Source: Candidatus Iainarchaeum sp.
Lineage (GTDB): Archaea; Iainarchaeota; Iainarchaeia; Iainarchaeales; DTGL01
NCBI GenBank assembly: GCA_038736825.1
Contig: JAVYME010000001.1
Location: 76,933-140,932 of the forward strand
Length of the DNA stretch: 64,000 nucleotides
Direction: 5' to 3'
Numbering within the stretch: position 1 is the first letter of the stretch; every line of letters starts with the position of its first letter. Position numbers and translations under genes: made by a program. The notes beneath the pieces were generated by a model. It did not search any database. It was not told the DNA's origin and saw only the letters and a list, made by a program, of their open reading frames with translations. Below, piece by piece: positions 15,763-33,583 of the stretch.

Positions 15763-16335
15763 TCAGGTTGCATTCGCATAAACCTTTAACAAATTGCCAC
15801 CATCAGCGCAACCAGAAATGCATGCAACCTCAAAAACCAAAACGCCCTTTTCTTTTTTTTCTGCTTTTGCGCCACTCTTTTCAACAATATCGCCAAAATA
15901 GGGCAATATAACCAAATCCAAAACCGTTGTCTTAGCCGGTGCAACAACAAACTGCACTGCAGAATAATTGGTTCCATCAATTGCTGGAGAGGTAATCGCA
16001 AATGAAAAGGTTTTGCTCGACTTGTTGGATAAAACCAATCCCGTGGATTCCCCAATTGCAATCTCTGTCAAAGAAAAACCTTGTTCTGAAAGTGGCACCT
16101 CAATCATTGACACTTTGTCAAAAGAGAGAACCAATGGTTGTGATGGTTTGTAGTCAGGGTTTTCCTTCAAAAACTGGGAAACAAAATATGGTTTCAAAAC
16201 AATATGAGGATTAGGATCTGGAGGCGGTTCGGCGGAAGGCCGTCCACCCCAATTAAAAACAAAAACAAATAAAGCCAGCAATATTGCAAAAACAACTATT
16301 CCCAAAACAGCCAGCTTCAAATACTTTTTATCCAT
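15763..16335 (-). CDS. hypothetical N-terminally anchored secreted protein
   Basis: N-terminal TM/signal anchor (LAVLGIVVFAILLALFVFVF). No recognizable domain. Convergent with the upstream gene across a 4-nt gap. Confidence 0.45.
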   Translation of the reverse strand: MDKKYLKLAVLGIVVFAILLALFVFVFNWGGRPSAEPPPDPNPHIVLKPYFVSQFLKENPDYKPSQPLVLSFDKVSMIEVPLSEQGFSLTEIAIGESTGLVLSNKSSKTFSFAITSPAIDGTNYSAVQFVVAPAKTTVLDLVILPYFGDIVEKSGAKAEKKEKGVLVFEVACISGCADGGNLLKVYANAT

Positions 16336-16388
16336 TCTATCACCAATCCAAGCATAGTAAAATTAATATATGAGGTTATATATAATGC

Positions 16389-17639: not shown

Positions 17640-17700
17640 AAAAAGCCAATATATTAGTTCAAAGAGAAAAAAAGCAGGGGGACAATTTTTGGTTTGCTCC

Positions 17701-19275
17701 CTATTTTTTTCCTTTTTTTTCTTGTGTTGATTTTTTTAACAATAGTTCTCTTTCTTGTTGTAGTTTGAGGAGTCTTTCCCTGTAAGCGCTTTCTGAAAGC
17801 CGTCTCTTGAAAAAATCCAGTTTTGCTTTTTTTTCAAGTTCTGAAATTTTTTCAAGGCGCCTTTCAATGGAGCGCTTTTCCAGTTGCTTGAGTTTTTTTC
17901 TCCAAAAAAATGCTGAAATTGAAAGAATTAAGGCTGTTATTCCGCCTCCAAAAACAATTATTTTGCCCCAATCTATGGGTTCAATTATTTCTGTTGAAAT
18001 CTTTGCTTTTCCTGAAAAAGGCGGTTTTAAAACAATTTCAATGGTGTGGGTTCCCTGTAAAGCAAATGGCAGGCTTGCAGAGCAAAAGCCTTTTTCAGTG
18101 CAGGAAAGAGTAATTGAGTGCTGTTTTTCGTCAATGTAAAGCAATGCTTCAACCTCATTGCTTGCAACTTGTTGTCCTTCCACTTGTACTTCTATTTTTG
18201 TAGCTCCGCCACGACTTTCAGTTCTGCCTTCCATTGGGAAAACGAACAAAACCTGGTTTTCAGTCGGGCTTGCCCCTTCTGGAGAAAGCATTTCAAGAGA
18301 AAAACTGTTTTTTTCAGTTTTTGTTCCAGAAGCGTTTTTGCCTGAAACAGTTATCTTCAATTCACTGTCTTTCTCGCTAACGGGGCGCGTGAATTCTGCA
18401 CTCCAGGCTCCTCCTGCAAAAGACAATTTTTTTCTTTCCAGTATTTTTTCTTTTGACAAAAGCCAAGCCTCAAAATCCCCGCTGTTGACAACAGTTTCTT
18501 TTTGGTGAAGAGAAAAGGAAATTTTTCCAACAGGCGAGCCAAAAAAATATTTCTGTTCTTCATTGAAGGGATTGCGGACTTGAATGGTTGCTGGCTTGAA
18601 GAAAAGCGGAATGAAAAAAGTTTTTTCCTTTGAGCCTGCAAGCGCTGCCTTCAATTCCAGTTTTTCAAATTCTTCAAAGGAAGCGTCTGGAACAAAAGAG
18701 CCTTCCAAAAAAAGGTTTTTGGAATCCCATTGCAAGGCAATGCTTTTGCCTTTTATTAAGGCACTAAAATGGGAAAAGGCTTCCTTTTCACTTGAACCCA
18801 AAAACCTTTGAATGTAGGAATTGTCTTTGTCCAAGAAAGCAATACGTATCTTTTTTTCAACTCCTGTTTCGATTGCAATATCCTGTCTTGCCTCTGAAGA
18901 GGGCGGCAAAAATGCTTTGAATTCAGTTCTCGTGATTCGCACTGGCACTGTTTTTTCCCCTAAAAGCATGCCGTTGTCCTTAAGCTTTATTTGTGCTTTT
19001 ACTTGAAAGGTTTTCGGGGAAAAATCTATTGCTTCAAGGTAATATGCATGGCTTGCAAAAGGGCTTTCGGTTGAAATTTCAGTGCCATCCCCAAAACTCC
19101 AAACAAAATCCAAAACGCTTTCAGGAAAATTTTCCAGCTTTAAATTGAAATCCACTGCTTGCGCTTCAAATGCCTCGCTAGTGCTCGCTGAAAGCCCGAA
19201 ATCAAGCGAGCTATGGGCAAATGGCAAAAGCAAGAAAAGAAAGGCTGCCAAAAAAAGGCTTTTTGCCATTTTCAC
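17701..19275 (-). CDS. type-I membrane surface protein (PKD-like repeats) with coiled-coil K/E/R-rich cytoplasmic tail
   Basis: N-terminal signal peptide, WSFGDGTE PKD-like motif and a C-terminal TM (ITALILSISAFFW). The tail LEKKAKLDFFKRRLSESAYRERLLKL is homologous to the tail of the upstream 1059-aa protein. Its stop overlaps the next gene's start by 4 nt. Confidence 0.7.
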   Translation of the reverse strand: MKMAKSLFLAAFLFLLLPFAHSSLDFGLSASTSEAFEAQAVDFNLKLENFPESVLDFVWSFGDGTEISTESPFASHAYYLEAIDFSPKTFQVKAQIKLKDNGMLLGEKTVPVRITRTEFKAFLPPSSEARQDIAIETGVEKKIRIAFLDKDNSYIQRFLGSSEKEAFSHFSALIKGKSIALQWDSKNLFLEGSFVPDASFEEFEKLELKAALAGSKEKTFFIPLFFKPATIQVRNPFNEEQKYFFGSPVGKISFSLHQKETVVNSGDFEAWLLSKEKILERKKLSFAGGAWSAEFTRPVSEKDSELKITVSGKNASGTKTEKNSFSLEMLSPEGASPTENQVLFVFPMEGRTESRGGATKIEVQVEGQQVASNEVEALLYIDEKQHSITLSCTEKGFCSASLPFALQGTHTIEIVLKPPFSGKAKISTEIIEPIDWGKIIVFGGGITALILSISAFFWRKKLKQLEKRSIERRLEKISELEKKAKLDFFKRRLSESAYRERLLKLQQERELLLKKSTQEKKGKK

Positions 19276-22200
19276 CTCTCCTTGTAAAGCCTTGCCAAAA
19301 CCATTTCAATTACTTTTTCACTATAGCCCTCGTTTCTAAGCCCTCTTGCCACCTCTTCTCTTGAAAACTCTCCGATTCTTCCGCAAAGTCTTGTTGTGAG
19401 CACTATGGCTTGAACTTTTTCAGGCGCTTTCTTGAAATCCTTTGAGGGAAAAACTGTTTTCCAAAAGCCTGTTTTAATCCAAAAACCGCTTTTTAATAGA
19501 GAATCAATGCATTTCAGTCCTTTGCTTAAAAGCCTTATTTGTTCGCCGAGCTCGCTTTCAGAAATATGCCTTTTGAAAAACTCAAACTTGTATTTTTTCT
19601 CCAGTCCAGTCAAGCGCTCTTTTTCCCTAAGCAAGAAAGCCCTTTCAGAAAAAACATTTCTTAAAAGCAATGCAAGGAAAACCAGGATTACAATGCAAGC
19701 AAAACCGAAAGCCAGCAAAGCAAGGCTTAAGCCTTGCTCAATGGTTGCAATAACTGTTCCTTCTCCAGAAAAATCTTCTTTTAAAACAAGCTTGAGTGAA
19801 TGCGTTCCAGCCAGCAAGGGCGAACTCAAAACCCCCTTGTGCAATTTTTCTTTTTCGTCAAACTTGAGTGAAACAGGCTGCAGGTTGCCGTCAACCAGCA
19901 AATCGCTGTTCAATGCAATGTTGGCAAACAAGTGGTTGTTGGGCTGGAAAAACCTAACACTTATCTCGCTTATTTTGCCATTCCAGGGCTTGTTCAAGCC
20001 AGCGCTGGGTTGAACAAAAACCATTTGCAGGTTGTTTGAAAGTGAAATTGTTAAAAACTCTAAATCCATCAATTCTTTGCCGTCAAGAGTGGCGTGTGCT
20101 TCAAGCCGGCAGCTCACGCTTTTTTTGCCAGAATCCTGCAATGGCAAAAGGATTTTCGCAGAATATTGCTGGCTTTCTTTATCAAAATCCATTTCCTCCA
20201 AAAAATCCAGTTCAGGGCATTCCACAATGATTTTTTTGTTTTTAACCTTGTAATTGTCTGAAAGAATTTTTGCCTTCAAGTTAACTGTTTGCCCGAAAGC
20301 ATACTCGCGCTCACTGTTCACTGGCTCCAATATTGAAATAACCAGTGCCGAGTTTTTTGCAAGCGGAACCGCTTGCACTTCATCAACCTTGTTGCCTGCA
20401 GCATCCCTGCCCTTCAATTTCAACTTTAAACCATGCAAAAAATCGGTTTCATTCACAGTATGGTCAAAATAAAGCGTGTAATCAAACTCGTTTTTTTCAA
20501 TTCTCACTTCTTCCTCTTTTTTGCCTGAAACAAGCACTGCCCTTAACTCGCTTGGAAAAACCACGATTATGCCGTTCAACAAAAACATTACTTTGGCTTT
20601 TTCAAGGGAATCAAGCAAAAAATATTTTTTGCCCTTGAAGACATTGGTTGCCTTGAAAAAAGAAGGCTCAAAAAACACTGGCGCTTTTGCATGGAACTCG
20701 CGCTTTTCCCCCTTAACCTCACTCAAAGCATGAATTTCCAAGAATTCAGTTTCAGAAAGCGAACTCCAAGGCTTAAAAATTCCCTCAAAAATTGTTCCAG
20801 AACAATGCATTTCAACCAGCGAGCCAGCAAGCAAAACCCTGAGCGAAATTCCTTGACAAGCAATCCTTTCATCGGCTTCATCCAAAAACTCCAAGCGCAC
20901 ATTCAAATCCCTTTGCTTTGAATTTGTCTGCACATGGGTTGGCTCCAAAACTCTTGCCTTAAACTTGGACTTTAAAACCTTAACCTTAACCTCTGCGCCT
21001 GCAGTCTGCCCTTTGGAATCACTAACGCGAACCTTCACCAAAAACTCTCGCTCTTTCTCCAAACCCAAAAAATAAGCGTGAAATGCCTCTCTCTGGCTTG
21101 CATTAGAGTCATCACCGAAATCCCAGAAAAATTCAAGCGACTCTTCATTCAAAGCATTAGTGATTGCAGTGAAATAAAAATATTGTCCTTCAAATTGCTG
21201 CCTGCTTTCAGGGTCAACCAGTACTGTCAAAACCTGCAATGGCTCGTCCTTTAAAGAAGTTTTAAAGGACAAAACAGGGCTTTCCCTTGAAAGGCTTTGC
21301 GTTGAAGAAACTGCCTTGAAAAAATAGTTTGTTTCCGGTTTCAATCCAAGCAAGTGGATTTTGTGGTGAATTGTTTTAGTGCCGTCAAAAACCCTTGAAC
21401 CCAAAGCACTGGTTTCACCGAACTCCACTGCAGAATCGGATTGCACTAAAGTGTTCCAGTAAACCTTTGCATGAGTGGCAAAAGCAAAAACCTGAACATT
21501 TTTTGGATCAATATCCTGCAATCCTGCTTTCAAAATGCAGCGGTTTTCTTGACTGCAATAAAAGCCTTCCTCGCACTTTGCAGTGCAATCAATTTTTTGC
21601 CCGCAATTATTGCTTTTAGAACCACACTCGCTCTCGGAACACGAAAGGGCTTTGCAGCATTTTCCATTAATGCAATTCCAGCCAGCACTGCAAGAGCACT
21701 GAATTGTGCCACCGCAATCATTTGAAAAAGAACCGCATTGTCCTGCAAAATCCCTTGAACACGACTTGCAGGATTGCAAGCATTTCCCGTTCAAGCAACC
21801 CCCCGAACAAAACTCGCTTTCAATCCTCGAGCAATCCGCATTAGAGTAAACCCTTGTAGAACCAGAACAAAACCATCCTTGAACACAAGGTTGAAGCAAA
21901 CCACTAGAAGCAGCACTAGAACCCTGTGGTTTGCACTCAGGACACAAAGAACTGCCATCACCTGATTGTGATAAATTTTGTCCTGGCATTTGATAAACAG
22001 CTGCAGGAGAGCCCTTAGCTTTTGATTGCAAATAATCATCATATGGGTCGCCCCCCTTAGACAAATCCTCATAAGAACCACCGGCAGGTGCCGCTCCATC
22101 ATCTTGTCCTAGCTCATTTACTCCTCCTGTAGCTCCTGTTTGACTCAAGCCATCATCATTTTGGACAAAAGTTGGAGTGGAAGCGCCATCAGCAGCCCCG

Positions 22201-22451
22201 CTAGGCAAACTTGGGCCAGGCGAGTTGTTAGTTGGGGGATTGAGTGCGTCGTCTGAAACAGGGCAATCTGGACAGTAGTATGCGCCTGTGCCTTCGGTTA
22301 CAGCAAAATATGCTGTTTTTTCTTTAGGCAAGGCTAATGAAAAGAAACCGGTTTTTTCGCTTAAAATGGTTTCATAAAACAGCCAGGTTATGGCTAGCAC
22401 TAAAACTATTGCCAACAAAAAGGCAGGCTTTTTTGAAAAAACTGAAGGCAT
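19272..22451 (-). CDS. giant type-I membrane surface protein: acidic G/D/S/P-rich region, Cys-rich EGF/laminin-like module, FN3/PKD-like repeats, TM and ~150-aa cytoplasmic tail
   Basis: 1059 aa with signal anchor and a run of CxxxxC repeats (CSGGCLNGKCLQSCKSC...CGQKIDCTAKCEEGFYC). WDFGDDSNA PKD-like and PETNYFFKAVS FN3-like motifs. C-terminal TM followed by LEKKYKFEFFKRHISESELGEQIRLL. Confidence 0.75.
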   Translation of the reverse strand: MPSVFSKKPAFLLAIVLVLAITWLFYETILSEKTGFFSLALPKEKTAYFAVTEGTGAYYCPDCPVSDDALNPPTNNSPGPSLPSGAADGASTPTFVQNDDGLSQTGATGGVNELGQDDGAAPAGGSYEDLSKGGDPYDDYLQSKAKGSPAAVYQMPGQNLSQSGDGSSLCPECKPQGSSAASSGLLQPCVQGWFCSGSTRVYSNADCSRIESEFCSGGCLNGKCLQSCKSCSRDFAGQCGSFSNDCGGTIQCSCSAGWNCINGKCCKALSCSESECGSKSNNCGQKIDCTAKCEEGFYCSQENRCILKAGLQDIDPKNVQVFAFATHAKVYWNTLVQSDSAVEFGETSALGSRVFDGTKTIHHKIHLLGLKPETNYFFKAVSSTQSLSRESPVLSFKTSLKDEPLQVLTVLVDPESRQQFEGQYFYFTAITNALNEESLEFFWDFGDDSNASQREAFHAYFLGLEKEREFLVKVRVSDSKGQTAGAEVKVKVLKSKFKARVLEPTHVQTNSKQRDLNVRLEFLDEADERIACQGISLRVLLAGSLVEMHCSGTIFEGIFKPWSSLSETEFLEIHALSEVKGEKREFHAKAPVFFEPSFFKATNVFKGKKYFLLDSLEKAKVMFLLNGIIVVFPSELRAVLVSGKKEEEVRIEKNEFDYTLYFDHTVNETDFLHGLKLKLKGRDAAGNKVDEVQAVPLAKNSALVISILEPVNSEREYAFGQTVNLKAKILSDNYKVKNKKIIVECPELDFLEEMDFDKESQQYSAKILLPLQDSGKKSVSCRLEAHATLDGKELMDLEFLTISLSNNLQMVFVQPSAGLNKPWNGKISEISVRFFQPNNHLFANIALNSDLLVDGNLQPVSLKFDEKEKLHKGVLSSPLLAGTHSLKLVLKEDFSGEGTVIATIEQGLSLALLAFGFACIVILVFLALLLRNVFSERAFLLREKERLTGLEKKYKFEFFKRHISESELGEQIRLLSKGLKCIDSLLKSGFWIKTGFWKTVFPSKDFKKAPEKVQAIVLTTRLCGRIGEFSREEVARGLRNEGYSEKVIEMVLARLYKER

Positions 22452-22654
22452 ACTATACTTAAGGTTTCTTTTTTATTAATCTTTTCCTTGCTCTTTCAGA
22501 AAGGTTTGAGAAAGCAAAACCATTAAAACACAAAAAAACAGCAAAACAATAAAAAGTTATGGCCAGGCAGTGCAATTAAAAACATTTTTAAAAACATACA
22601 ACATAACTATTTTTAATTAAATAATGAAATTTTTTGGCGTGGAGGGGTTTGAGA

Positions 22655-23926
22655 ATGCTTTTCGGTTTTCCTTTGAAATTCTTTGACCAAAAATTTAAAC
22701 CAGTTGCTTTTTTATCGGTTTTGGCTTTACTGGTTTTTTTTGCCTCGAATTCTTTTGCTCAACAAAGAGTGGAACTGGCAAATCCAGTGTGCTTTTATGA
22801 TGTCAATCAAATGCACGAATACTTTACTGACTTGCAGGGCAATAAAATTCCAAACCTGGACTTTATAAGGCTTTTTAGCGCTATTGAAGCAAAACCCCAA
22901 AACGACCCTTCAATAAAGGACGAAATAAAGCGCGCGCTCAGGGGACAATTTTATACTGGTTATTTGCAGCTCGCTTACACTATTGAAGGCGGAAAAAAGA
23001 ACCCTTTCAAGGGAGGCAATTATGCTAAATGCGATTTAGGTTGCTTTCCACAATTTACTTATTTTGGGAGAACCTATTACAACAAGTGCATTACAAGGAT
23101 TTGCACTGAGGGCAGAATGGTTGGCACTCCTCGTTTTTGTGATCCAAAAATCGGACCCGATATTTACATTCACTACCTGACTTTTTGGTGCGAAGATGTT
23201 CCACAGGCAACAATGATTTGCGGGCCGTCAGCTCATTGCGAGCAAAGAGCGGATGGCACTTTTTTGTGTGAATACAATAGCGCAACTTCTTCAAACCAAA
23301 GCAATGGCGTGGAATATGTTTTGGTTGCTCCAGCGGATTCAAGCTCTCAAATAATGGTTGCAGCATACCAGAACGGAAAGCTCATTGCAAGCAAGCCGAT
23401 TGGCACAACAGGCCCTGTTCATGCAAGCCAGGCTTATGCTTTTGCGCAAAGCACTGGATTGGCTTCGGTTGTGGCTTCAGCACTCCAGCAAAAAACAACA
23501 ACCACTGCTTCCAGTAAGCCTAGCACAACCTATTCTGCATCATACAATGGCAGCACAAACTATTCTTCAACTCCAATAAGAATGCAGGTTGTTGCTAGTG
23601 CCACAAAAGGCCTTTCAGCCTATAGAGCGCCAACTGCAACCTACAAAACATATTCAACCACAAGCACAGCCAGCACTGCAACATACGCTTACAGCACAAG
23701 CCAAACCAAAAGCACTTCTGCAAGCAGTTATTCTTCAAGCACAACTTATTCGCCAACAAAAACCACTTATAGCAATACGGTTTCACCTTATTCAACTTCA
23801 AATTACAGGATTCAAGCAACAACTTATAATCCGACAAGGACAGCATACTCTACAAACGCTTACACAAGCACTTACAGCACCACAACACAGGCTACGGCGA
23901 GTGTTTCAAAATACAGGCAAACCTGA
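22655..23926 (+). CDS. secreted protein with Cys-containing N-terminal domain and ~170-aa Ser/Thr/Tyr-rich low-complexity C-terminal region
   Basis: Signal peptide MLFGFPLKFFDQKFKPVAFLSVLALLVFFASNSFAQQ (the track begins at a TTG at 22634). The C-terminus is dominated by S, T, Y and A (TYSTTSTASTATYAYSTSQTKSTSASSYSSSTTYSPTKTTYS...). Confidence 0.6.
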   Translation: MLFGFPLKFFDQKFKPVAFLSVLALLVFFASNSFAQQRVELANPVCFYDVNQMHEYFTDLQGNKIPNLDFIRLFSAIEAKPQNDPSIKDEIKRALRGQFYTGYLQLAYTIEGGKKNPFKGGNYAKCDLGCFPQFTYFGRTYYNKCITRICTEGRMVGTPRFCDPKIGPDIYIHYLTFWCEDVPQATMICGPSAHCEQRADGTFLCEYNSATSSNQSNGVEYVLVAPADSSSQIMVAAYQNGKLIASKPIGTTGPVHASQAYAFAQSTGLASVVASALQQKTTTTASSKPSTTYSASYNGSTNYSSTPIRMQVVASATKGLSAYRAPTATYKTYSTTSTASTATYAYSTSQTKSTSASSYSSSTTYSPTKTTYSNTVSPYSTSNYRIQATTYNPTRTAYSTNAYTSTYSTTTQATASVSKYRQT

Positions 23927-23953
23927 AACCGCATGTATTTTTTCTTTTGACAA

Positions 23954-25285
23954 TCAGGTCGTTTCCAGAAGCCATTTCCATAAAGGCATAAACCTTATTT
24001 TTTTACCCTTGTATTCTTCAATTCCTTCAAAATCAGCGTTAACCACCAGCAAATTGTTACACTTGAGCTCTGTGCTTGCTTTGAGCAGTCCTTCAAGTTC
24101 TCGTTTTTTGGTTTCAAAATCACTCAAATCATAGCAAACCTGAATTAACTGGAGCACCTTTGGACCTTCCTTTAAAACAAAATCAACCTCTTTGCCTGAA
24201 GAGTCCTTCCAGTAATAGATTTCTGCAGGGGCTTCCAAATAAGACTTTCTCCTAAGCAATTCAATTGCAACCGCATTTTCAACAAGCTTGCCATAATTTT
24301 GGCTTAATTTGAAAGAAACCGCGTTTACAAGGCCAGTGTCAATACAATAGATCTTTTTAGGGGCTTTGATTTGCTCTTTCAACTTGGGTGAAAATCTTTC
24401 AAGTTTGAAAAACAAATAGGAGTTTTCCAAATAAGCAATCCAATTGGACACCGTGTGAGTGCTCTTTAAGCCCAAAATGTTTTTCAGCCGGTTGTAAGTT
24501 AATTCAGAAGAGGTATTGGAAATCAAATACCTTGAAAGCTCTTTAAGTTTCGAAACATATTTTATTTTATACCTTTGAATTACGTCCTTTTCAATGATGT
24601 CACTATAAGTTTCTATAAGAAACAGTCTGCCCAGCTTAAAAGCCAGGGGAAACCCGCCTTCACGCAAATATCTTTCCAAAAAATTCTTTAATTTTGCAAC
24701 AGACTTTGTGGAATACTGGTCTTTTTTATCAAACTCAACCCCAGCATAATCCAAAAACTCTCTGAAGCTGAACGGAAAAAGAACAAAATCAATATGCCTG
24801 CCGGTTAAAAAAGTGGAAAGCTCTTTACTCATCAATCGCGCATTGCTGCCAGTGACAATTACCTTCTTCCCAGTGCTGACTCTAGAAACAAAACGCTCCC
24901 ACCCACTAACATTCTGGATTTCGTCAAAAACAAGAAGGCTAACATCGCCTTTTAAAGAATAAACTGCCTCTATAACTGAATTCAAGTCACGAACAGCCAC
25001 GCCGAGTCGCTCATCTTCAAAATTCACATATCCTCTCCGGTCTGATTCAAAACATTGAAAAGCAAAAACAGACTTGCCACATCGCCTGACACCGGTTATT
25101 ATCACTATAACATCCGTGGAAATAAACTTTTTAACTTGGCTAAGGCATTCCCTCTCAATAATTCGCTCACTCTTGAACTTATCAAGCAAAGCCTCTTCTC
25201 TGTCCACAATTGCAGATTTAATATCCCCCAACAAAACCATAAAAAAAAAGTAACGCAAAGATTTTAAAAAACTTTGCGTTGGCAA
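23954..25285 (-). CDS. AAA+ ATPase of the COG1373/DUF4143 family
   Basis: Walker A ITGVRRCGKS and Walker B LLVFDEIQ. Overall archaeal 'ATPase + DUF4143' architecture, 443 aa. Confidence 0.8.
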   Translation of the reverse strand: MPTQSFLKSLRYFFFMVLLGDIKSAIVDREEALLDKFKSERIIERECLSQVKKFISTDVIVIITGVRRCGKSVFAFQCFESDRRGYVNFEDERLGVAVRDLNSVIEAVYSLKGDVSLLVFDEIQNVSGWERFVSRVSTGKKVIVTGSNARLMSKELSTFLTGRHIDFVLFPFSFREFLDYAGVEFDKKDQYSTKSVAKLKNFLERYLREGGFPLAFKLGRLFLIETYSDIIEKDVIQRYKIKYVSKLKELSRYLISNTSSELTYNRLKNILGLKSTHTVSNWIAYLENSYLFFKLERFSPKLKEQIKAPKKIYCIDTGLVNAVSFKLSQNYGKLVENAVAIELLRRKSYLEAPAEIYYWKDSSGKEVDFVLKEGPKVLQLIQVCYDLSDFETKKRELEGLLKASTELKCNNLLVVNADFEGIEEYKGKKIRFMPLWKWLLETT

Positions 25286-25457
25286 CGCTAACCTGTTTTA
25301 GCCTAGCAAATCCAGCATCCAATACCTTATCGTATACCAAAAACGGTTTTCGATTTAGAGAATTGATAAAAAAAGCCTGCAGGTTAAAGCCAAAGCAAAC
25401 CTGAAGCCAGCTATTGCTTTTTTCTCTTTTTCTTTTCTTTTCACTATAGTGAATTGA

Positions 25458-25895
25458 ATGGATTTTTTTTTGGGTTCAGACCATGGCGGGTATCCCTTAA
25501 AGGAAAAAGTCAAAAAATGGCTGGAAAGCGAAGGCCATTCAATAAAAGATTTTGGCTGTTTTTCAGTGGAAAGCTGTGATTATCCCGAGTTTGCTGAAAA
25601 GGTTGCAAGAGCAGTTACAAAAAATAAAGATTCAATTGGATTGCTTTTTTGCGGCACTGGAATTGGCATGAGCATTGCAGCAAACAAAATCAAGGGAATA
25701 CGGGCAGCACTCTTGCATAACGCTTTTGAGGGAAAAATGGCAAAAGAGCACAACAATGCAAACGTGCTCTGCTTTGGAGGCAGAACTGTTTCTTTCAGGA
25801 ATGCAAAAAAGGCAATCACTGCTTTTTTAAAGGCAGAATTTGTGGGCGGCAGGCATTTGCGGAGAATAGAAAAAATTGCAGCACTCGAGAGATGA
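25458..25895 (+). CDS. rpiB: ribose-5-phosphate isomerase B (RpiB/LacA family)
   Basis: LGSDHGGYPLKE...FCGTGIGMSIAANKIKGIRAAL is characteristic of RpiB. 145 aa. Confidence 0.9.
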   Translation: MDFFLGSDHGGYPLKEKVKKWLESEGHSIKDFGCFSVESCDYPEFAEKVARAVTKNKDSIGLLFCGTGIGMSIAANKIKGIRAALLHNAFEGKMAKEHNNANVLCFGGRTVSFRNAKKAITAFLKAEFVGGRHLRRIEKIAALER

Positions 25896-26317
25896 AAATG
25901 TTTGAATTGTTTGAGCACAAGGCAGACATTGGAGTGCGCGGTTATGGAAAAACGCTTGAAGAAGCCTTTCAAGAGTGCGCGAAGGCAATGTTCAGCGTAA
26001 TGTCAAACCTGAAAAAAGTCAAAGCCAGAGAAAGCATTGAATTGCGAGTTAGAGCGAGAAATGAAGAAGAATTGCTTGTTGCCTGGTTAAACGAATTATT
26101 GTTTGAAAAAGGCACAAAAGAAATGCTGTTCTCTGAATTCAAAGTGAAAATTTCAAAGGAAAAAGAAGGACTGGTTTTGAAAGGCACAGTGAAAGGCGAA
26201 AAAATGAACCACAAAAAACATGAAATGAAAACAGAAGTCAAAGGAGCAACCTATTCTGGCTTGAAAGTGATTAAAGAAAAAGAAAAGTATTTAGCGCAAT
26301 GCATTGTCGATGTATAA
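25892..26317 (+). CDS. archease (RtcB ligase activator)
   Basis: MFELFEHKADIGVRGYGKTLEEAFQECAKAMFSVM matches the archease N-terminal signature. 141 aa. Overlaps the rpiB stop. Confidence 0.85.
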   Translation: MKMFELFEHKADIGVRGYGKTLEEAFQECAKAMFSVMSNLKKVKARESIELRVRARNEEELLVAWLNELLFEKGTKEMLFSEFKVKISKEKEGLVLKGTVKGEKMNHKKHEMKTEVKGATYSGLKVIKEKEKYLAQCIVDV

Positions 26318-26379
26318 AGCAATTGCAGCAAAGCCGCGTGGTTTGACAATAATGTTTAAATAGTGGAAATGCGTAATAT

Positions 26380-27185
26380 TTGAGAATGAAAAGATTTGGT
26401 TTTTTGCCTTCAGTTTTTTACTGTCTCGCCATGTTCGGCTTGATTTTCACGCTAGTGGCAGCCCAAGAAGAAGTAAGGCAGCTTTCCATTAAAATTGAAG
26501 GCTTGCGCTATGTAAGGCATGAAACAGTAACCATTACGGCGCTTTTTGATGGGCAACCCGTTGCTGGCGTTGATGTAAATGTTTTTTTCAAAGATTTGAA
26601 CCTGAAAAAACAGACCAAAACAAAATAATATTGCAAAGAATAGAAGATTATAAGACAGACAGTCAAGGCAAGTTTTCCTTTAAATTGCATGAAGCCGGCA
26701 CTTACTTTTTATTTTTTGCCAAAAAAGAAGGAACCATTTTTTACGCAGCAAGCGAAAAAATAGATTTTTTGATAAATCCAAGACCATATTTCAGTGCAAG
26801 CAATGGCGTTTACAATCTTTGCTTTAGGGAACCAATTGGCTCAATAACAATCATTGAAGGCGAGAAAAGAACAACCCAAAGCCTTGATGAAAACAATTGC
26901 ACTCAATACTCTCCAAAAACAGAGTCCTTCACAGTTGAAACCCCTTACAGCAAAGAATTCAAAAAGATTTCAATACCAGTAAAAGTTGAAACAGAAAAAC
27001 CAACCCCTGTCCCAACACAACCCACTCCAATACAAACACAATTTGAAGAAAAAACAAAGCCGATTTCACAACCAAAAACACAAACCCAGCCAGACTTACT
27101 GTTACCTATCAGCATATTGTTAGTTGCAAGCATATGCTTGGTTGCTGCAGGAGTTTACCTCAGAAAACGGAGGATGAATTCATGA
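26380..27185 (+). pseudogene. frameshift-interrupted gene for a small surface protein (signal peptide + carboxypeptidase-regulatory/transthyretin-like beta-sandwich + Thr/Pro linker + C-terminal TM anchor)
   Basis: Two consecutive ORFs (26380..26628 in frame 1, 26631..27185 in frame 0) together encode one domain (VTITALFDGQPVAGVDVNVFF | YKTDSQGKFSFKLHEAGTYF). Frame 0 is open from 26574. A T7 run (26582-26588) and an A6 run (26605-26610) lie in the overlap. Confidence 0.5.
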
Positions 27186-29317
27186 AAAAAATACTCTTTG
27201 TTTTGGCTCTTTTTTTAATGCTTTCCTGTGCCAATGCAGCAAAAAAAATCCAGCTCACTGTAGAAGACGACGGCATTGACCCAGTAACCCCAGAAGAAGA
27301 TGCTGACACAAAAGACAAAGCATACCTTGTAGTAGGACCAGGGCCTTACACTTTGACAGTCAAAATCCAAAACTTGCAGGAAATAGAAGAGTTTGGCGGT
27401 CCAGTTGATGTAATGGCTTTATTTGATGCCAGTTATAGCTTTAATGATGAAATCGAGGTTGTCAAAAATGACATAGAAAAACTTGGAGCAGAACTGGATC
27501 AAAACTGCCAAAAAATAGGCATTCCGGGGTGCTTCAATTTAGGGCTTTACGTTTTTGAAGGAGGCACTTGCGCTAGAAATTGTTCCAACCAATATGTTTG
27601 CACTCAAATAAATTGCAGAATAGTCACAGTTAAAGATTGGTGCACTGAGTGTACTGTAATAACAATTCCAGGCAAGTGCCAAGTTTGCGATTATGAAACT
27701 GAATGCCGTGAGGTTTGTGAATTGCGTGATAACGTGAAAGTATGCTGGCCAGAGTGCCACGAAGTGCCAAAAAACTGTCGAATGGAGCCATGTGACACAT
27801 ACAAGTGGGATTGCAAACTAGTGCCTTGCTTTGTAGAAGAAGAGGTATGCGATGAACATTGTGAATGGCAAGAAGTTTGTGGTTGGACTGTGTGCAAAAG
27901 GCCTGATGCTGCTTTTTGGAATTCCACTGATTTCCAGCAACCAGTGACTCCGCCATTGCCTTTGGATTATGCAAACGATGTTGGCTTGCTTCCCATAACA
28001 AACAATATGACGCTTGTCAAAAACAACTTGGAAAAAATTAGTGCTCCAAACTTTTCAACACAACAGCTAGAGCCATGGGGTAGCATTATAACCTATGTTT
28101 TGAATGCACCTGAAGTAAAATGGCAGGAAAACCACCGGAGGGCAATAATATTAATCACGGATGAAAAAGATGATTCTGGCACTTACAAGACTGCAGCACA
28201 ACTTGCAAAAGACCAAAACGTGGTTGTGTTCGGCATTATTGGAAAAGGAGTGGGTTCAGATGAAGCGAAAGCCAATGCTGAATATGTTGCAAACCTGACA
28301 GGCGGAAAGGTTTTCACTTATACAAATTCTGAAGAAATAAAAGCCCTATTGCGTGAAATAATGGGCTCACTCATAAAAGAAGACACTTTTGTTTTTTCAA
28401 AAGAATTAGGGCCTAACTGGGATGGAATAACTGCAAATTTTGATCTGCCGCCGGTTCCAAGAAAGGGACCCGGACTTGTTTACCCAATCAAGGGCCTTGC
28501 TCCAGCGGTTTGGCCTACAACTGAGGAATATTTCCATTACAGGGTTTCCTTGAAAAGCAATCCGGCTGTTTTTGATGATGCTTGGGTTAGAGTGACCATT
28601 AATACGCCGCCAACTGCCGATTTTGAAATGATTCCAACTCCGCCAACTGGAATGGTGCCTTTAAGCGTAAAATTCGTCAACAAATCAACAGACAACGAAG
28701 GAAACATTACAAACTACCATTGGGTTTTTGGCGATCCATCTTCAGGAGCAGACAATGAAAGTAATGAAGAAAACCCAACACACGTTTTCCAATATGCTGG
28801 AGAATATTCAGTCACTCTTACAGTAACCGACAGCGGGCAAGCAAGTCACAGTGTTACAAAAAAAGTCATGGCAAAAGAAAGGCCCCTAATTTCTGCGTTC
28901 AAGGCGAATAATCCCAAGACACCAGATGAAGGACTGGACATCACGGTTTACTGCACAAAATTCCAAGCCTTAATCAAAATAGAAATACTGGACAAGGATG
29001 GATTGTTGGTGACAAAGGACAAAGACGGCAACCCCATAACAAACCCAATAAAAATTCCTGGAACAAATGATTGGCCGAGATGCGGAAGCACCATTAGCCC
29101 TGACATCAGGCTTTCAAGCGGAGTCTACCAAATAAGGGCAACAATAATGAAAGATGATGGCAGCGGTCCAGACCCGGATTGCACTAATTGTCCGAAAAGC
29201 ACACACATAACCGTGGGAATGAGCGCACCAGAAATGCAAACCCCAGAAATTCCAGCAATACTAACAACAATAATAGCGCTTGCAGTGATTGTCATTACAA
29301 ACAGGAAAAAGAAATAG
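27182..29317 (+). CDS. secreted multidomain surface protein: vWA-like domain (MIDAS DxSxS) with Cys-rich insertion, PKD domain, conserved C-terminal sorting signal (PEIPAIL-TM-NRKKK)
   Basis: Start chosen at MKKILFVLALFLMLSCANA, preceded by GGAGG. LFDASYSFNDE (DxSxS), AIILITDEKDD, VVVFGIIG. 26 Cys within ~120 aa. PTADFEMIPTPPTGMVPLSVKF PKD. C-terminus is near-identical to the 16389..17639 protein. Confidence 0.75.
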   Translation: MKKILFVLALFLMLSCANAAKKIQLTVEDDGIDPVTPEEDADTKDKAYLVVGPGPYTLTVKIQNLQEIEEFGGPVDVMALFDASYSFNDEIEVVKNDIEKLGAELDQNCQKIGIPGCFNLGLYVFEGGTCARNCSNQYVCTQINCRIVTVKDWCTECTVITIPGKCQVCDYETECREVCELRDNVKVCWPECHEVPKNCRMEPCDTYKWDCKLVPCFVEEEVCDEHCEWQEVCGWTVCKRPDAAFWNSTDFQQPVTPPLPLDYANDVGLLPITNNMTLVKNNLEKISAPNFSTQQLEPWGSIITYVLNAPEVKWQENHRRAIILITDEKDDSGTYKTAAQLAKDQNVVVFGIIGKGVGSDEAKANAEYVANLTGGKVFTYTNSEEIKALLREIMGSLIKEDTFVFSKELGPNWDGITANFDLPPVPRKGPGLVYPIKGLAPAVWPTTEEYFHYRVSLKSNPAVFDDAWVRVTINTPPTADFEMIPTPPTGMVPLSVKFVNKSTDNEGNITNYHWVFGDPSSGADNESNEENPTHVFQYAGEYSVTLTVTDSGQASHSVTKKVMAKERPLISAFKANNPKTPDEGLDITVYCTKFQALIKIEILDKDGLLVTKDKDGNPITNPIKIPGTNDWPRCGSTISPDIRLSSGVYQIRATIMKDDGSGPDPDCTNCPKSTHITVGMSAPEMQTPEIPAILTTIIALAVIVITNRKKK

Positions 29318-29383
29318 GCTTTGCTGGCAGAGCACTAGTTTCTTTTTTTAATCCTTAATTTCCAAATATTTTAGGTTTTTTCT

Positions 29384-30826
29384 ATGGCATTGTTAAAAAT
29401 AAGGGATTTTGTTTGGGAAATCCCGAAAGAGGGAAAAATGCGCGTTCCAGCAAGGCTTTACGTGGACCAAAAAATGATTCAAGAACTGGAACGCGAAGAG
29501 CAAACCAATTGGAGCACTTTAAGGCAGTTGAAAAACATTGCTTCCCTGCCTGGCATTCAAAGCCCTGCACTGGCTTTGGCTGACTGCCATCCAGGTTATG
29601 GCGCGCCAATTGGCAGTGTTGCCGCCATGGATTTAAAGGAAGGCGTTATTTCTTTTGGATGCATTGGGTTTGATGTGAATTGTGGAGTGCGCACTCTTGC
29701 AACCCTGTTAAAAAAAAGCGAAGTGGAGAAAAGGAAAAAAGAGCTTGCAGAAGAGCTTTTCAAAAACGTGCCAGCAGGGCTTGGCGTTACAGGAAAACTC
29801 AAATTAAGCCAAAGCGAAATTGACGAGGTTTTAGTGAAAGGCGCTGAATTTTCCCTTGCAAAAGGTTATGGTTTCAAAGAGGACTTGGAGTTCATTGAAA
29901 TGAATGGAAAAGCAAGGGACGCAAACCCGGAAAATGTTTCGCTCAAGGCAAAACAAAGACAGTTCAAGGAAGTCGGCACTCTTGGTTCAGGCAATCATTA
30001 CCTGGAAGTGCAATTCGTGGAAAAAATATTCGATGAAGAAATCGCACAAGCCTTTGGATTGTTTGAAGGGCAAATCGTTGCAAGCATTCACTGTGGAAGC
30101 AGGGCATTGGGCCACCAGATTGGCGCAGACTATCTGGTGGAACTGAAAAAAGCCTCAGAAAAATACAAATTGCATTTGGCAGACCCTGAACTGGTGTCAG
30201 CGCCAATTGAAAGCGAAGAGGGAAAAAAATATTTTTCCGCTGTGAGCGCTGGAATGAATTGCGCTTTTGCAAACAGGCAGGTTTTAGCACACCTTGCAAG
30301 GGAATCCTTTGCAAGGGTTTTTGGAGTGAATGAAAGGGAAATACGGACTTTTTACGAGGTTGGCCATAATACTGCAAAAATAGAAGAGCATGAAGTGGAA
30401 GGAAAGCAAAAGGAATTGCTTGTGCAAAGAAAAGGCTCTACAAGGGGTTTTGGCCCTGAAAGGAAAGAAGTGCCAGCACAGTATAGAAAGTTTGGACAGC
30501 CAGTACTGGTTGGCGGGACAATGGGCACTGCCAGCTATGTTTTGGCTGGAACAATAAAAGGAATGAAGGAAACCTTTGGTTCGGCAGTGCATGGTGCTGG
30601 AAGAAAACTTAGCCGGAATGCAGCAATCAAGTCTTTCAAGGGAGAACAAATTGCAACAGAATTGAACAAAAAGGGAATAATAATCAAAACGCATTCATGG
30701 AAAGGCATTTCAGAGGAAGCTCCTCAAGCTTACAAGGACATAGATGAAGTAATAGAAATAATGGCTGTCACAGGAATCAGCAGAAAAGTTGCAAGGCTCA
30801 AGCCAATGATAACAATAAAGGGATGA
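29384..30826 (+). CDS. rtcB: RNA-splicing ligase RtcB
   Basis: GSGNHYLEVQ..., HCGSRALGHQ and HNTAKIEEHE motifs. 480 aa. Confidence 0.93.
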   Translation: MALLKIRDFVWEIPKEGKMRVPARLYVDQKMIQELEREEQTNWSTLRQLKNIASLPGIQSPALALADCHPGYGAPIGSVAAMDLKEGVISFGCIGFDVNCGVRTLATLLKKSEVEKRKKELAEELFKNVPAGLGVTGKLKLSQSEIDEVLVKGAEFSLAKGYGFKEDLEFIEMNGKARDANPENVSLKAKQRQFKEVGTLGSGNHYLEVQFVEKIFDEEIAQAFGLFEGQIVASIHCGSRALGHQIGADYLVELKKASEKYKLHLADPELVSAPIESEEGKKYFSAVSAGMNCAFANRQVLAHLARESFARVFGVNEREIRTFYEVGHNTAKIEEHEVEGKQKELLVQRKGSTRGFGPERKEVPAQYRKFGQPVLVGGTMGTASYVLAGTIKGMKETFGSAVHGAGRKLSRNAAIKSFKGEQIATELNKKGIIIKTHSWKGISEEAPQAYKDIDEVIEIMAVTGISRKVARLKPMITIKG

Positions 30827-32292
30827 AAATGCAGTTAGAGGAAAAAAAAATCCTTTTTTTAACATTGTTCTTTTTCTTTATTTCTTTTGGTGTAAGGCTT
30901 TCATTAATGGAATTAAGGCCATTGCATCACGATGAGGGCGTGAATGGCTATTTTATAAGCAATATAGTGGAAGGACGCGGCTGGAAATATGATCCAGAAA
31001 ACTATCATGGACCGACATTTTTCTACATAACAGCGGTTTCTTTCCTTGCTTTCGGCGGAAATATTTTTGCGCTCAGGATTGTGCCAGTAATTTTTGGCTG
31101 CCTGCTGGTGCTAGTGCCATTCCTTCTCAGAAAAAGGCTCGGGTTTTGGGGTGTGCTAACAAGCACGTTTTTCCTCGCTTTCTCACCTGCACTCCTCTAT
31201 TATTCCATGGATGCAATTCACGAAATCCTCTTCACGTTTTTCATGACTGCATCGCTCGTGCTTTTCCTTGAATTTGCTTCAGAAAAAAAGCCATGGATGC
31301 TTTTCGGGGGAAGCGCTTGCCTTGCAATGTTTTTGGCTACAAAGGAAGCTGCCTTCATAATAGGCCCTTTTATAGTGATTCTTGCAATTTTCTTCAGTTT
31401 TGCAAAGGAAAAAAAAACAGAGAATAAATTGGAAGGCAAAAAAATTGCATTTTTAATTGAATTTTTAGTTGCAATTGCAATATTTTTTTCAATTTACATT
31501 CCTCTTTTCACTTCTTTTTTTCAGAACTGGAATGGGTTGGAGGATTCTGTTAAAACCCTTGGATTGTGGGGTCCAAGAGTGATTGTGGAAAAAGGTCATG
31601 ACAAGCCTTTCCCTTATTATTCTGGATTGCTGTTGTTCAGCGAGTTGCCGCTTCTAGTGGCAGGCATTGCGGGAATGCTTTTGGCGTTCTGGAAAAGGAA
31701 CGTTTATTTTTGCGTTATCGGCGTTTTTTTCATTGCAATGTTTTTAGGGGTTTCCGCTGTTCCCTACAAAACCCCTTGGATTGCAATAAACTTTTTGCCG
31801 CCTCTTGCGCTTCTCTCGGGATTTACAGCAAGAGAGTTTTTTGGCGTTAAAACTGGACTTTCAAGGCAAGCCGGCTTGCTGGTGCTAGGAGTGGTTTTTG
31901 CTCTTGTGTTATGGCAATCATATTATGTGAATGTTGTTGCTCCTGCAGCAGAGCGCTCTGAGGAAAATCCCTGGGTTTATGTGCAGACAACAATGAGTGC
32001 AAAGAAGGCATTTGAAAGGGCACTGGCAGCAGATGGAAAAATCCTCATTGCATTGGAGAATGAGAGCACTTGGCCCATGCCTTGGCTTTTAAGGGAAAAA
32101 AAAGTGGAATACCATGGAAGGGACTCTTTGGAGTCTGCTGAATTCTTGCATGGTTTTGAAGTGCTCATAGTGCACAGGAATCTGGGGGAAATTGTTGTAG
32201 GAAAGATTCCAGAATATGAGCGCTTTGGGTTTGATTTGCGTCCAGGAGTGCCTTTGGATGCATTTTTCGCGCAAAAAAAGCAAAATCCCTGA
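30823..32292 (+). CDS. GT-C fold glycosyltransferase-like polytopic membrane protein (PMT_2/ArnT/TIGR03663-like)
   Basis: N-terminal loop LRPLHHDEGVNGYFISNIVEGRGWKYDPENYHGPTFFY resembles the DE-containing first loop of GT39/GT83 enzymes. About 11 TM helices. 4-nt overlap with rtcB. Confidence 0.55.
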   Translation: MKMQLEEKKILFLTLFFFFISFGVRLSLMELRPLHHDEGVNGYFISNIVEGRGWKYDPENYHGPTFFYITAVSFLAFGGNIFALRIVPVIFGCLLVLVPFLLRKRLGFWGVLTSTFFLAFSPALLYYSMDAIHEILFTFFMTASLVLFLEFASEKKPWMLFGGSACLAMFLATKEAAFIIGPFIVILAIFFSFAKEKKTENKLEGKKIAFLIEFLVAIAIFFSIYIPLFTSFFQNWNGLEDSVKTLGLWGPRVIVEKGHDKPFPYYSGLLLFSELPLLVAGIAGMLLAFWKRNVYFCVIGVFFIAMFLGVSAVPYKTPWIAINFLPPLALLSGFTAREFFGVKTGLSRQAGLLVLGVVFALVLWQSYYVNVVAPAAERSEENPWVYVQTTMSAKKAFERALAADGKILIALENESTWPMPWLLREKKVEYHGRDSLESAEFLHGFEVLIVHRNLGEIVVGKIPEYERFGFDLRPGVPLDAFFAQKKQNP

Positions 32293-32368
32293 TTTTAACT
32301 TGTTAACTCAATAAAAGGAAATATTTAAATACTTGAAGGGCGCTATTTATTATATCTACTAAATCCGG

Positions 32369-33583
32369 GTGGTTGGTTTGAGGAATGAATTTTTTGCTCT
32401 AGCCGTTTTTTCGCTCTTGCTTTTGGGCAGCAATGCTTTTGCCTTGCCCAACTGCAACATGGTTTTCTTTGAATTGTACAATGTGGAATTATGGGAAGGC
32501 TCCAAGGAAACATTCACTTTTGCAATTAACAACACAGGCAATGAAAGATTCTACATTGACAAAGTAAACGCTTTTGATTTCTCTGAGGGAATTGCAGTGC
32601 AAGAAGAATACTGGGGCGACGTAGTTCTCCCAGGAGAAAAAGCCTTTGCCACAATATCCGTTAAAGCAGACAAAGGAACAGAGGAAAGGGAAAGAAAGGC
32701 ATACATAGAGCTCAGCGGCCGCTTTTTGGGAGGAAAAAGGTGTTCTTTTTCGGATGTGCACGGCGAATTCAATGTAAGCGTGCTCAAAGAACCAGTGCAC
32801 AAGATTGAACCCAGGTGTGATGGCTTTTCACTCACTGCCCCAAAAGAAAAATACATTGAGGGCGAAGGCACAATAGAGTTTTTTGCCTCAAACAAAACCA
32901 ATTATGATGCAATCATAACACTGGAAAGCGAAAGCATTAGCGTAAGCGAAAGCGTTTTCCAGTTAAGGAAAGGCGAAGAAAAAAAGTTTTCTGCCTTCAT
33001 TAAAAGCGATGCTGACCGGGCAACACTCAAATACAATGTAAGGGTAAGCGATTGCGGCATACCCTCTCAGGAAACAAGAATTTATTCAGCAATGGAAACA
33101 CCAATTCCAACACCAACCCCTCAACCCTTTAAAGCCATTGAAATAGGAGCATCAGCCTCTAAAGACGCAAACGGCTTCCTTGTAACAGTGGAAATCCACA
33201 ATCCAAACAGTGAAGGCATTATCGGAAACCTTGAAGCAATTGTGCCACAAGGGTGGACTGTAATAGGGGAAAAGGCGGTTTTGGCTGAACCTCTTTCAAA
33301 AACAATTTCCCTTATAAGGATTGCACCACCAAAGGGAGCAAGCGGAACACACCCCGTACAAATAGTATTTTCATATGATGGAATTGAGGAAAGCACAAAA
33401 TTAGAGCTTGCAACCGGAAGCGAAGGCTTTGACTTTGGCGGAGCAGCCTTTGCAGTGCTTGGCTCAGGAGCATTCCTTATAGGACTAATAATCGTGGCAA
33501 TAATACTGATAATAATGCTTTTCTCAAGCCCGCCAAGGCAATACTTTGAACCATGGCTGGAAGCAAAGGAAACCAAAAAATGA
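32369..33583 (+). CDS. secreted surface protein with C-terminal TM anchor
   Basis: Signal peptide, short Thr/Pro linker (ETPIPTPTPQPF), C-terminal hydrophobic helix and a short basic tail. No recognizable catalytic domain. Confidence 0.5.
   Translation: MVGLRNEFFALAVFSLLLLGSNAFALPNCNMVFFELYNVELWEGSKETFTFAINNTGNERFYIDKVNAFDFSEGIAVQEEYWGDVVLPGEKAFATISVKADKGTEERERKAYIELSGRFLGGKRCSFSDVHGEFNVSVLKEPVHKIEPRCDGFSLTAPKEKYIEGEGTIEFFASNKTNYDAIITLESESISVSESVFQLRKGEEKKFSAFIKSDADRATLKYNVRVSDCGIPSQETRIYSAMETPIPTPTPQPFKAIEIGASASKDANGFLVTVEIHNPNSEGIIGNLEAIVPQGWTVIGEKAVLAEPLSKTISLIRIAPPKGASGTHPVQIVFSYDGIEESTKLELATGSEGFDFGGAAFAVLGSGAFLIGLIIVAIILIIMLFSSPPRQYFEPWLEAKETKK

Follow-up and report, generated by a model that had tools for sequence, protein, structure and literature searches.

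The gene of interest lies in a 64,000-nucleotide stretch of the genome of Candidatus Iainarchaeum sp. (the window), where an open reading frame at 30823..32292 on the forward strand encodes an Agl23/TIGR03663-family membrane protein of 489 residues with a GT-C fold. The AlphaFold model contains 11 hydrophobic helices, in agreement with the polytopic protein proposed by an earlier reading of the sequence alone (the sequence-only reading), and both motifs quoted there occur in it (LHHDEGVNGYF, 30922..30954; WKYDPENYHGPTFFY, 30982..31026). GenBank holds the identical protein, already annotated as a TIGR03663 family protein, in a version of 487 residues that starts at the second ATG (30829), 2 nt past the stop of the upstream neighbor. 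That neighbor, given here as context only, is rtcB (tRNA-splicing ligase; 29384..30826, forward strand; Pfam RtcB, 516 bits). A 4-nt overlap between the two genes had been described, and the ATGA is indeed seen (ATG at 30823, stop TGA at 30824..30826). The overlap itself is not secure, given the GenBank start at 30829 and the gaps of 12–16 nt found at the same junction in relatives. A scan for bacterial-type promoters and terminators around the gene, which is ill-suited to archaea, returned chance-level counts.

Directly downstream is the gene for a surface protein of 404 residues (32369..33583, forward strand), whose sequence contains a signal peptide, a Thr/Pro (TP) linker and a C-terminal membrane anchor and which is a candidate glycosylation substrate. 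It matches no Pfam family. Its linker reads ETPIPTPTPQPF (33095..33130), and an orthologue in a relative (locus L002) is 43% identical and has a TP-rich linker as well. A divergent neighbor of 403 residues in another relative (L004) was considered as its counterpart and rejected, as the two have no similarity. Two further TP-linker genes on the forward strand serve as context only. The first encodes an anchored surface-protein fragment of 184 residues (26631..27185), with the linker PTPVPTQPTPIQTQ at 27000..27041, 3.6 kb upstream of the Agl23 gene. The second encodes a PKD-domain surface protein with a long TP linker (16389..17639); its TP stretch, the longest, actually reads SPTPKPVTPTPTPTITLTPTPTLTP (about 16869..16952). 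The proposal that Thr/Pro-linker proteins are encoded by the flanking genes therefore stands for the ORF directly downstream and for another linker 3.6 kb upstream, but not for the longest linker, which lies 14 kb upstream and is not flanking. The protein with an S/T/Y-rich tail also exists (22634..23926, 24% Ser+Thr, 7 kb upstream). More broadly, the stretch from 15.7 to 33.6 kb around the Agl23 gene is rich in surface-protein genes, and N-X-S/T sequons are enriched about twofold in the window's surface proteins.

The gene product is an ordinary and already known member of the annotated Agl23/TIGR03663 family. Comparison with GT-C profiles placed it above the curated cut-offs of three models: TIGR03663 itself (NCBIfam, "flippase activity-associated protein Agl23"; 199.6 bits, cut-off 126.25), with residues 17–428 matched to positions 7–432 of the 435 in the profile; Pfam PMT (38.7 bits, cut-off 22.7), with a match restricted to residues 64–230; and Pfam PMT_2 (33.4 bits, cut-off 26.1). 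A Halogeometricum protein annotated as Agl23, which scores 318.9 bits on TIGR03663, aligns with it over the full length by hhalign (probability 99.7%, E = 5e-26, 477 aligned columns), and DE, HGP, R85, KE and PW are also kept in this alignment. We take the hallmarks of the family to be an invariant N-terminal DE dipeptide, an HGP tripeptide and two arginines. Among 50 homologs, no variation is seen in D37-E38, H62-G63-P64 or R85, and at least 90% have R25. The family has thousands of members, of which one has been studied, Agl23 of Haloarcula hispanica. Most bacterial family loci include an overlapping upstream partner gene (~660 aa), and the anammox partner weakly matches DUF2298; no homolog of such a companion polytopic protein (TIGR03662/DUF2298-like) was found within the 64 kb window. 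The possibility that this bacterial partner is a family paralog was rejected (hhalign probability 0.2%), and the BLAST cluster that joins the partner to the family is due only to a C-terminal PA14 domain that the two share in anammox bacteria.

The fold was equally clear. The AlphaFold model (pLDDT 94.5, pTM 0.93) has GT-C enzymes as all of its top 34 Foldseek matches, and the best matches in both fold searches were only GT-C enzymes (ALG12, ArnT, Pmt4, AglB). Together with the profile matches and a DE loop predicted to face outward, this bears out the earlier description of a GT-C-type glycosyltransferase-like membrane protein; neither of the two outcomes named there as refuting it, a lack of GT-C profile matches or a cytoplasmic motif loop, was obtained. 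The predicted topology is of 11 helices with the N terminus inside and the C terminus outside; Lys and Arg account for 11 of 27 residues in the inside loops vs 9 of 107 in the outside loops, and it is this bias, together with agreement with the topology of GT-C enzymes, that places the DE loop outward. Across the 50 homologs (29–68% identity), 29 residues are invariant, and 28 of these are on the outer face of the predicted topology. The first outer loop (residues 33–64; 30919..31014, forward strand, as are the following features) is predicted to face outward and contains invariant P33, H35-H36-D37-E38-G39, N41, F44, Y56 and Y61-H62-G63-P64. Invariance extends to I132-H133-E134 (31216..31224), where helix 4 begins on the outer side; to K174-E175 (31342..31347), within the short outer loop that follows helix 5; and to Y315, K316, P318 and W319 of Y315-K316-T-P318-W319 (31765..31779), a motif located where helix 10 begins on the outer side. 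The motifs are more than chance, as their columns are invariant across the 50 homologs. The protein ends in a small alpha/beta domain (residues 373–489; 31939..32289), according to the secondary structure of the AlphaFold model and placed outside the cell by the topology, in which W417, P418, P420, W421 and an L472-R473-P474-G475 motif are conserved in the same set.

A PDB sequence search with the single protein gave chance matches only, while a profile of the family reached ArnT (E = 9e-8), the sole PDB protein detected by sequence. All of the following residue equivalences come from that one HMMER alignment. D37-E38 is aligned to D55-E56 of ArnT, E134 to D158, and W319 to Y345, and H62-G63-P64 flanks the E84-K85 site, with H62 adjoining the position of K85. 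K174 is in the same loop as ArnT K203 but 7 residues out of register, and the two are plausibly equivalent. The aligned residues of ArnT have roles in catalysis, sugar contact and phosphate contact, with D158 contacting the sugar or acceptor and Y345 near the carrier phosphate (PMC7801869).

Family membership, fold, topology, and the conservation and alignment of active-site equivalents are best explained, with a probability of roughly one in two, by a GT-C transferase that uses dolichyl-phosphate-hexose on the outer face of the membrane. What we infer is its donor, its acceptor and a physiological role in transfer rather than flipping. The dolichyl-phosphate-hexose would be bound in an outer-face pocket formed by the invariant HHDEG and YHGP of the first loop along with IHE, KE and YKTPW, and its sugar would be passed to an acceptor outside the cell, which might be a protein- or lipid-bound glycan or Ser/Thr of a surface protein. 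The enzyme would then act last in a three-step scheme, transferring the sugar after carrier loading by a cytoplasmic GT2 and flipping of the loaded carrier. On this reading, the reported flippase activity of the haloarchaeal homolog would be a second activity, or a by-product of the groove that holds the lipid carrier.

That activity is the basis of a tentative alternative, in which the protein serves only as a flippase, an ATP-independent scramblase that brings dolichyl-phosphate-hexose or lipid-linked oligosaccharides to the outer leaflet from the inner one, with transfer left to other enzymes. The Iainarchaeum protein clearly shares its NCBIfam family with H. hispanica Agl23, which is described as a putative hexose-P-dolichol flippase serving extracellular N- and O-glycan assembly (PMC11182771). 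After purification, Agl23 of H. hispanica translocated Man5GlcNAc2-PP-lipid across the membranes of liposomes, raising the exposure of Man5GlcNAc2-PP-phytanyl in proteoliposomes from 50% to 75–90% (the Agl22 control was inactive), and it rescued yeast rft1-delta (PMC11182771). A flippase for the carrier would also account more readily for an effect on two different glycans than a transferase specific for one linkage. However, the molecule moved in vitro was a pyrophosphate-linked heptasaccharide, unlike the substrate proposed for the cell. Scrambling assays in liposomes readily pick up promiscuous activity. The invariant residues are at what appear to be the outer-face catalytic, sugar-binding and phosphate-binding positions of ArnT and PMT, which a protein that only flips would hardly need to conserve, and all top fold matches of known activity are transferases. 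In Halogeometricum, moreover, a GtrA-family gene (PF04138, 75 bits; on a plasmid) overlaps the end of the Agl23 gene, and GtrA is itself a putative flippase, so that the GT-C protein is left to act as the transferase. As judged from the alignment, the conserved equivalents of catalytic-site residues favor transfer over flipping. Several points count against transfer. The sole experiments on a family member led to its assignment as a flippase (PMC11182771), and the literature that we searched reports no transferase activity for any other. The residue equivalences come from a single HMMER alignment in which K174 and K203 are out of register. Within the 64 kb window, we found no gene for a donor synthase (a GT2 loading a sugar carrier), for GtrA or for AglB.

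The sequence-only reading had gone further and proposed a surface O-glycosylation module, in which a PMT-like protein O-glycosyltransferase would act on the Thr/Pro linkers and S/T-rich tails of its neighbors. We consider this module doubtful, as synteny is limited to close relatives and no partner genes were found in the window. In its favor, the surface protein encoded by the adjoining downstream gene is anchored and has a TP linker that its orthologue retains, the Agl23 gene lies inside the 15.7–33.6 kb stretch rich in surface-protein genes, and O-glycans are among those affected by H. hispanica Agl23 (PMC11182771). However, the order rtcB–Agl23–surface protein is kept only in relatives of 56–68% identity, and the adjacency is gone below about 56%, with the gene moving within the same conserved genome backbone. 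Iainarchaeia that are more remote have the gene elsewhere. In a relative of 37% identity, the Agl23 gene is upstream of rpiB and a surface-protein-like gene is still found between rtcB and L3; in another relative, it comes after S10; and in those of 41–42%, it is among unrelated neighbors. For a wider view, a taxon scan kept 80 of 592 confirmed family loci (the Haloarcula locus is not among the 80), and linker-bearing neighbors were counted at 75 family loci, mostly bacterial. ORFs with TP/SP linkers made up 8 of 301 within 2.5 kb of family genes vs 0 of 514 farther away. The 8 ORFs represent five separate orthologue groups (p = 0.004 counted by group), and the excess is sensitive to the distance chosen (p = 0.15 at 1.5 kb). 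The linker adjacent to the gene in our own window falls outside the definition used in this count. This weak excess of linker proteins beside family members elsewhere sustains the module idea and does not prove it. In addition, no MIR or other PMT-type peptide-binding domain was found with Pfam, and the loop after helix 7 has only 35 residues. The roughly twofold enrichment of sequons makes work on N-glycans equally possible.

It is very improbable that the protein is an ArnT-like lipid glycosyltransferase decorating the head group of a membrane lipid or glycolipid instead of a protein: ArnT is the only PDB protein detected by the family profile and among the best fold matches, but the NCBI ArnT equivalog model has no match to the Iainarchaeum protein at E ≤ 0.1, a relative scores 23 bits on it against a cut-off of 567, and protein glycosylation is the process in which the one studied family member takes part.

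The annotation of this gene is correct but routine (a GenBank family name, a curated model and a studied member), and the wider interest lies in the contrast between a "flippase" label and intact, invariant equivalents of a GT-C active site. A family of transferases would redraw the use of dolichol-phosphate-hexose in archaeal N- and O-glycosylation pathways, and would also matter for the debate over Rft1 as a flippase, where Agl23 has been enlisted as support. The boldest version is that Agl23/TIGR03663 proteins are widespread archaeal and bacterial outer-face GT-C transferases acting on polyprenyl-phosphate-hexose, and not primarily flippases, with the Iainarchaeum member O-glycosylating the Thr/Pro linkers of the surrounding surface proteins. 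We regard this combination as unlikely; if true, an archaeal protein O-glycosyltransferase would have been identified, and to our knowledge there is none yet.

Among known systems, ArnT (GT83, undecaprenyl-phosphate-L-Ara4N:lipid A transferase; PDB 5ezm/5f15) is like the Iainarchaeum protein in its detectable sequence homology, its place among the best fold matches, and the alignment of three sites (the DE motif, a second acidic residue and a tyrosine/tryptophan position). It is unlike it in that identity is 13–15%, ArnT has 13 helices where 11 are predicted here, and its acceptor, lipid A, does not exist in archaea. Pmt1, Pmt2 and Pmt4 (GT39) share the Pfam PMT/PMT_2 matches, a DE motif in the first outer loop and the N-in, C-out topology, but the Iainarchaeum protein is about half as long, with the PMT match covering residues 64–230 only. 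ALG12/ALG9 and STT3/AglB/PglB differ from it in sequence (9–17% identity, no significant match), and the Iainarchaeum protein has no WWDYG-type oligosaccharyltransferase domain.

H. hispanica Agl23 belongs to the same curated family, TIGR03663. The haloarchaeal Agl23 that we compared is the Halogeometricum representative; it is about 19–26% identical and has 645 residues vs 489, and the Iainarchaeum gene differs from the haloarchaeal one in having no GtrA or GT2 neighbor. GtrA/GtrB/GtrC are three-component glycosylation systems in which GtrA is a putative flippase. They resemble the present case in that some family members adjoin a GtrA gene (Halogeometricum) and some in anammox bacteria adjoin a GT2 resembling polyprenyl-phosphate sugar synthases, with a GT2 gene abutting the family gene at 7 of the 75 loci; the 64 kb window differs in containing neither a GtrA nor a GT2 partner. 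In Haloferax, as described in PMC3871713, AglD loads Dol-P-mannose, AglR is involved in flipping and AglS transfers the sugar outside the cell. AglR, the Haloferax flippase candidate, is a different kind of protein. What the AglD–AglR–AglS route of Haloferax volcanii, an established archaeal case, shares with the proposed scheme is its logic: load the sugar on dolichol phosphate inside, move it across, transfer it to a surface glycan outside (PMC3871713).

The ORF at 30823..32292 (+) codes for 489 aa, as claimed, and both motifs quoted from its product in the sequence-only reading were found, at 30922..30954 and 30982..31026. The protein passes the cut-offs of two Pfam families, with 38.7 bits for PMT (cut-off 22.7) and 33.4 bits for PMT_2 (cut-off 26.1), and covers nearly the full profile of NCBIfam TIGR03663, "flippase activity-associated protein Agl23" (199.6 bits, cut-off 126.25). 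A protein annotated as Agl23 on Halogeometricum plasmid pHBOR02 reaches 318.9 bits on TIGR03663 and aligns over its full length with the target's family profile (hhalign probability 99.7%). The target is a member of a known family, annotated before now, and an identical protein is already in GenBank, on a 157 kb contig. The host is a DPANN archaeon, with Candidatus Iainarchaeum as its closest species-level genomes. The family comprises 4,332 representatives at 50% identity with E <= 1e-3 (2,525 at E <= 1e-10) and at least 592 loci in species-representative genomes, chiefly of Acidobacteriota, anammox Planctomycetota, Chloroflexota and Iainarchaeia.

The AlphaFold model, built with an input alignment of 50 homologues, has a pLDDT of 94.5 and a pTM of 0.93, and its best 34 Foldseek matches in the PDB are GT-C enzymes without exception, with ArnT first. 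ArnT was also reached by sequence with the family profile (E = 9e-8). In that alignment, D37-E38 of the target pairs with D55-E56 of ArnT, a DE motif that is catalytic and the counterpart of Pmt1 D77-E78 (PMC7801869). Further along, H62-G63-P64 flanks ArnT E84-K85, E134 (invariant IHE motif) is aligned with D158, and W319 (YKTPW) with Y345; these other ArnT positions provide a sugar/acceptor contact, a carrier-phosphate contact and a phosphate-proximal tyrosine (PMC7801869). K174 and ArnT K203 share a loop with the register off by 7 residues, and we do not claim this pair. Counting the model's hydrophobic helices gave 11 membrane spans with a predicted N-in, C-out topology, and the C-terminal 117 residues are modeled as an extracellular alpha/beta domain. 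Lys/Arg make up 11/27 residues of the inside loops vs 9/107 of the short outside loops, and 28 of the 29 invariant residues are in outer loops or outer helix ends. The proposal of a GT-C-type membrane protein is therefore borne out by the above-cut-off profile matches and the uniformly GT-C fold matches. Lack of a profile match, or a cytoplasmic motif loop, had been named as refuting it; both checks were run, and given the profile matches and outer-face topology, neither does so.

The gene lies between rtcB (29384..30826) and the gene for a 404-aa anchored surface protein, just 5' of a large ribosomal-protein operon that begins with L3. The suggested overlap with the rtcB stop holds for ATG 30823 (as ATGA), but the GenBank copy, at 487 aa, starts at ATG 30829; both starts are compatible with homologue N-termini, and relatives have gaps of 12-16 nt at this junction. 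A 56%-identity relative (loci L002, 244..2418, and L003, 3..2252, in local coordinates) carries a ~730 nt insert in rtcB after about residue 100. The insert resembles an intein and brings the product to 749 aa. RtcB of the window (480 aa) is without the insert, and its top NCBIfam match is nonetheless an intein-containing RtcB model.

Many PKD/VWA surface-protein genes occupy 15.7-33.6 kb, with RpiB, archease and an AAA ATPase among them. At 25458..26317, the gene for archease, the RtcB activator, overlaps rpiB; surface-protein genes fill the 3 kb that separate it from rtcB downstream, and relatives have the same gene set in a different order. At 26380..27185, an 82-aa ORF (signal peptide) precedes a 184-aa ORF (Thr/Pro linker, C-terminal anchor), the two matching successive segments of DUF4198. 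Because the frame of the second ORF is already open at 26574, a 1-nt shift in a T7 run (26582-26588) or an A5 run (26605-26609) would join them; either the assembly is wrong here or one surface-protein gene has been frameshifted. The PKD surface proteins at 16389..17639 and 27182..29317 are paralogues (45% identity across the last 243 aa) with near-identical last 27 residues, PE[LM]QTPEIPAILT..IALAVIVITNRKKK, a possible anchor or sorting signal common to the two C-termini. Directly after S10 (13925..14233), a 503-aa polytopic ORF (14247..15758) matches UbiA prenyltransferases at residues 313-487 only; its N-terminal 300 residues, outside the match, are hydrophobic too.

The sequence-only reading joined the target and surface proteins in a surface O-glycosylation module. 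Relatives at 68% and 56% identity keep the order rtcB, Agl23, surface protein, L3, and their downstream surface protein is orthologous (43% identity) and retains its Thr/Pro-rich linker. This order is lost farther out: the family gene is upstream of rpiB in a 37% relative (a surface-protein-like gene still separates rtcB and L3), directly after S10 in another (RpiB, archease, UbiA and PKD genes downstream), and beside beta-CASP and NMD3 genes in 41-42% relatives. These varied positions indicate a family gene that changes place within one conserved backbone with variable surface-protein genes, and the adjacency looks like lineage synteny, not a dedicated module. No GT2, GtrA, AglB or companion membrane protein gene was found in the 64 kb window. 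The module is unproven.

Two of the Thr/Pro linkers cited in that reading do lie near the target, at 33095..33130 in the adjacent downstream gene and at 27000..27041, 3.6 kb upstream; the longest, correctly read as SPTPKPVTPTPTPTITLTPTPTLTP, is not flanking and belongs to a PKD-domain protein 14 kb upstream. Using crude ORF calls at 75 other family loci, Thr/Pro- or Ser/Pro-linker ORFs numbered 8/301 within 2.5 kb vs 0/514 farther off. The eight belong to five orthologue groups, which include large secreted proteins and a pilin-like protein. Counted by group, the excess has a p value of 0.15 with the limit set at 1.5 kb, 0.004 with 2.5 kb and 0.03 with 4 kb, a suggestive but fragile point in favor of the module. 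An N-glycan role is just as plausible as an O-glycan role, since N-X-S/T sequons are about twice as common in nine surface-protein ORFs (15763..33583; 0.72 per 100 aa) as in fifteen cytosolic window proteins (0.33).

Most bacterial TIGR03663 genes follow a gene for a ~660-aa polytopic membrane protein (L029, 5903..7903, and ~40 other loci), often with a 30-40 nt overlap. This partner gave no Pfam or NCBIfam match, its anammox version weakly matching DUF2298; we considered it as a homologue of the family and rejected this. At loci from anammox and other Planctomycetota (L010-L015, L027, L038, L061), family member and partner both end in a carbohydrate-binding PA14 domain. On pHBOR02 of Halogeometricum borinquense (L086, 8920..11291), two GH18 chitinase-like and two PKD-protein genes lie upstream of the Agl23-annotated gene on the opposite strand.

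Whether family members are transferases or flippases is a question of wider interest for the entire family, which the target sequence illustrates and cannot decide. A pure flippase would accord with reported work on Haloarcula hispanica Agl23, in which the purified protein translocated Man5GlcNAc2-PP-lipid in liposomes and yeast rft1-delta was rescued (PMC11182771), and we found no transferase assay for any family member in the literature searched. Against it, the target's invariant residues are those required by a GT-C transferase, on the outer face, and its closest structural relatives are all enzymes with lipid-phosphate-sugar donors. The gene neighbors of some members also count against it: a GtrA-family gene (PF04138, 75 bits) overlaps the 3' end of the Halogeometricum Agl23 gene, and in anammox bacteria the family gene directly adjoins a GT2 gene similar to polyprenyl-phosphate sugar synthases (GT2 neighbors at 7/75 loci overall). 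So does the operation of a load-flip-transfer scheme in archaea, as in the AglD/AglR/AglS route of Haloferax (PMC3871713).
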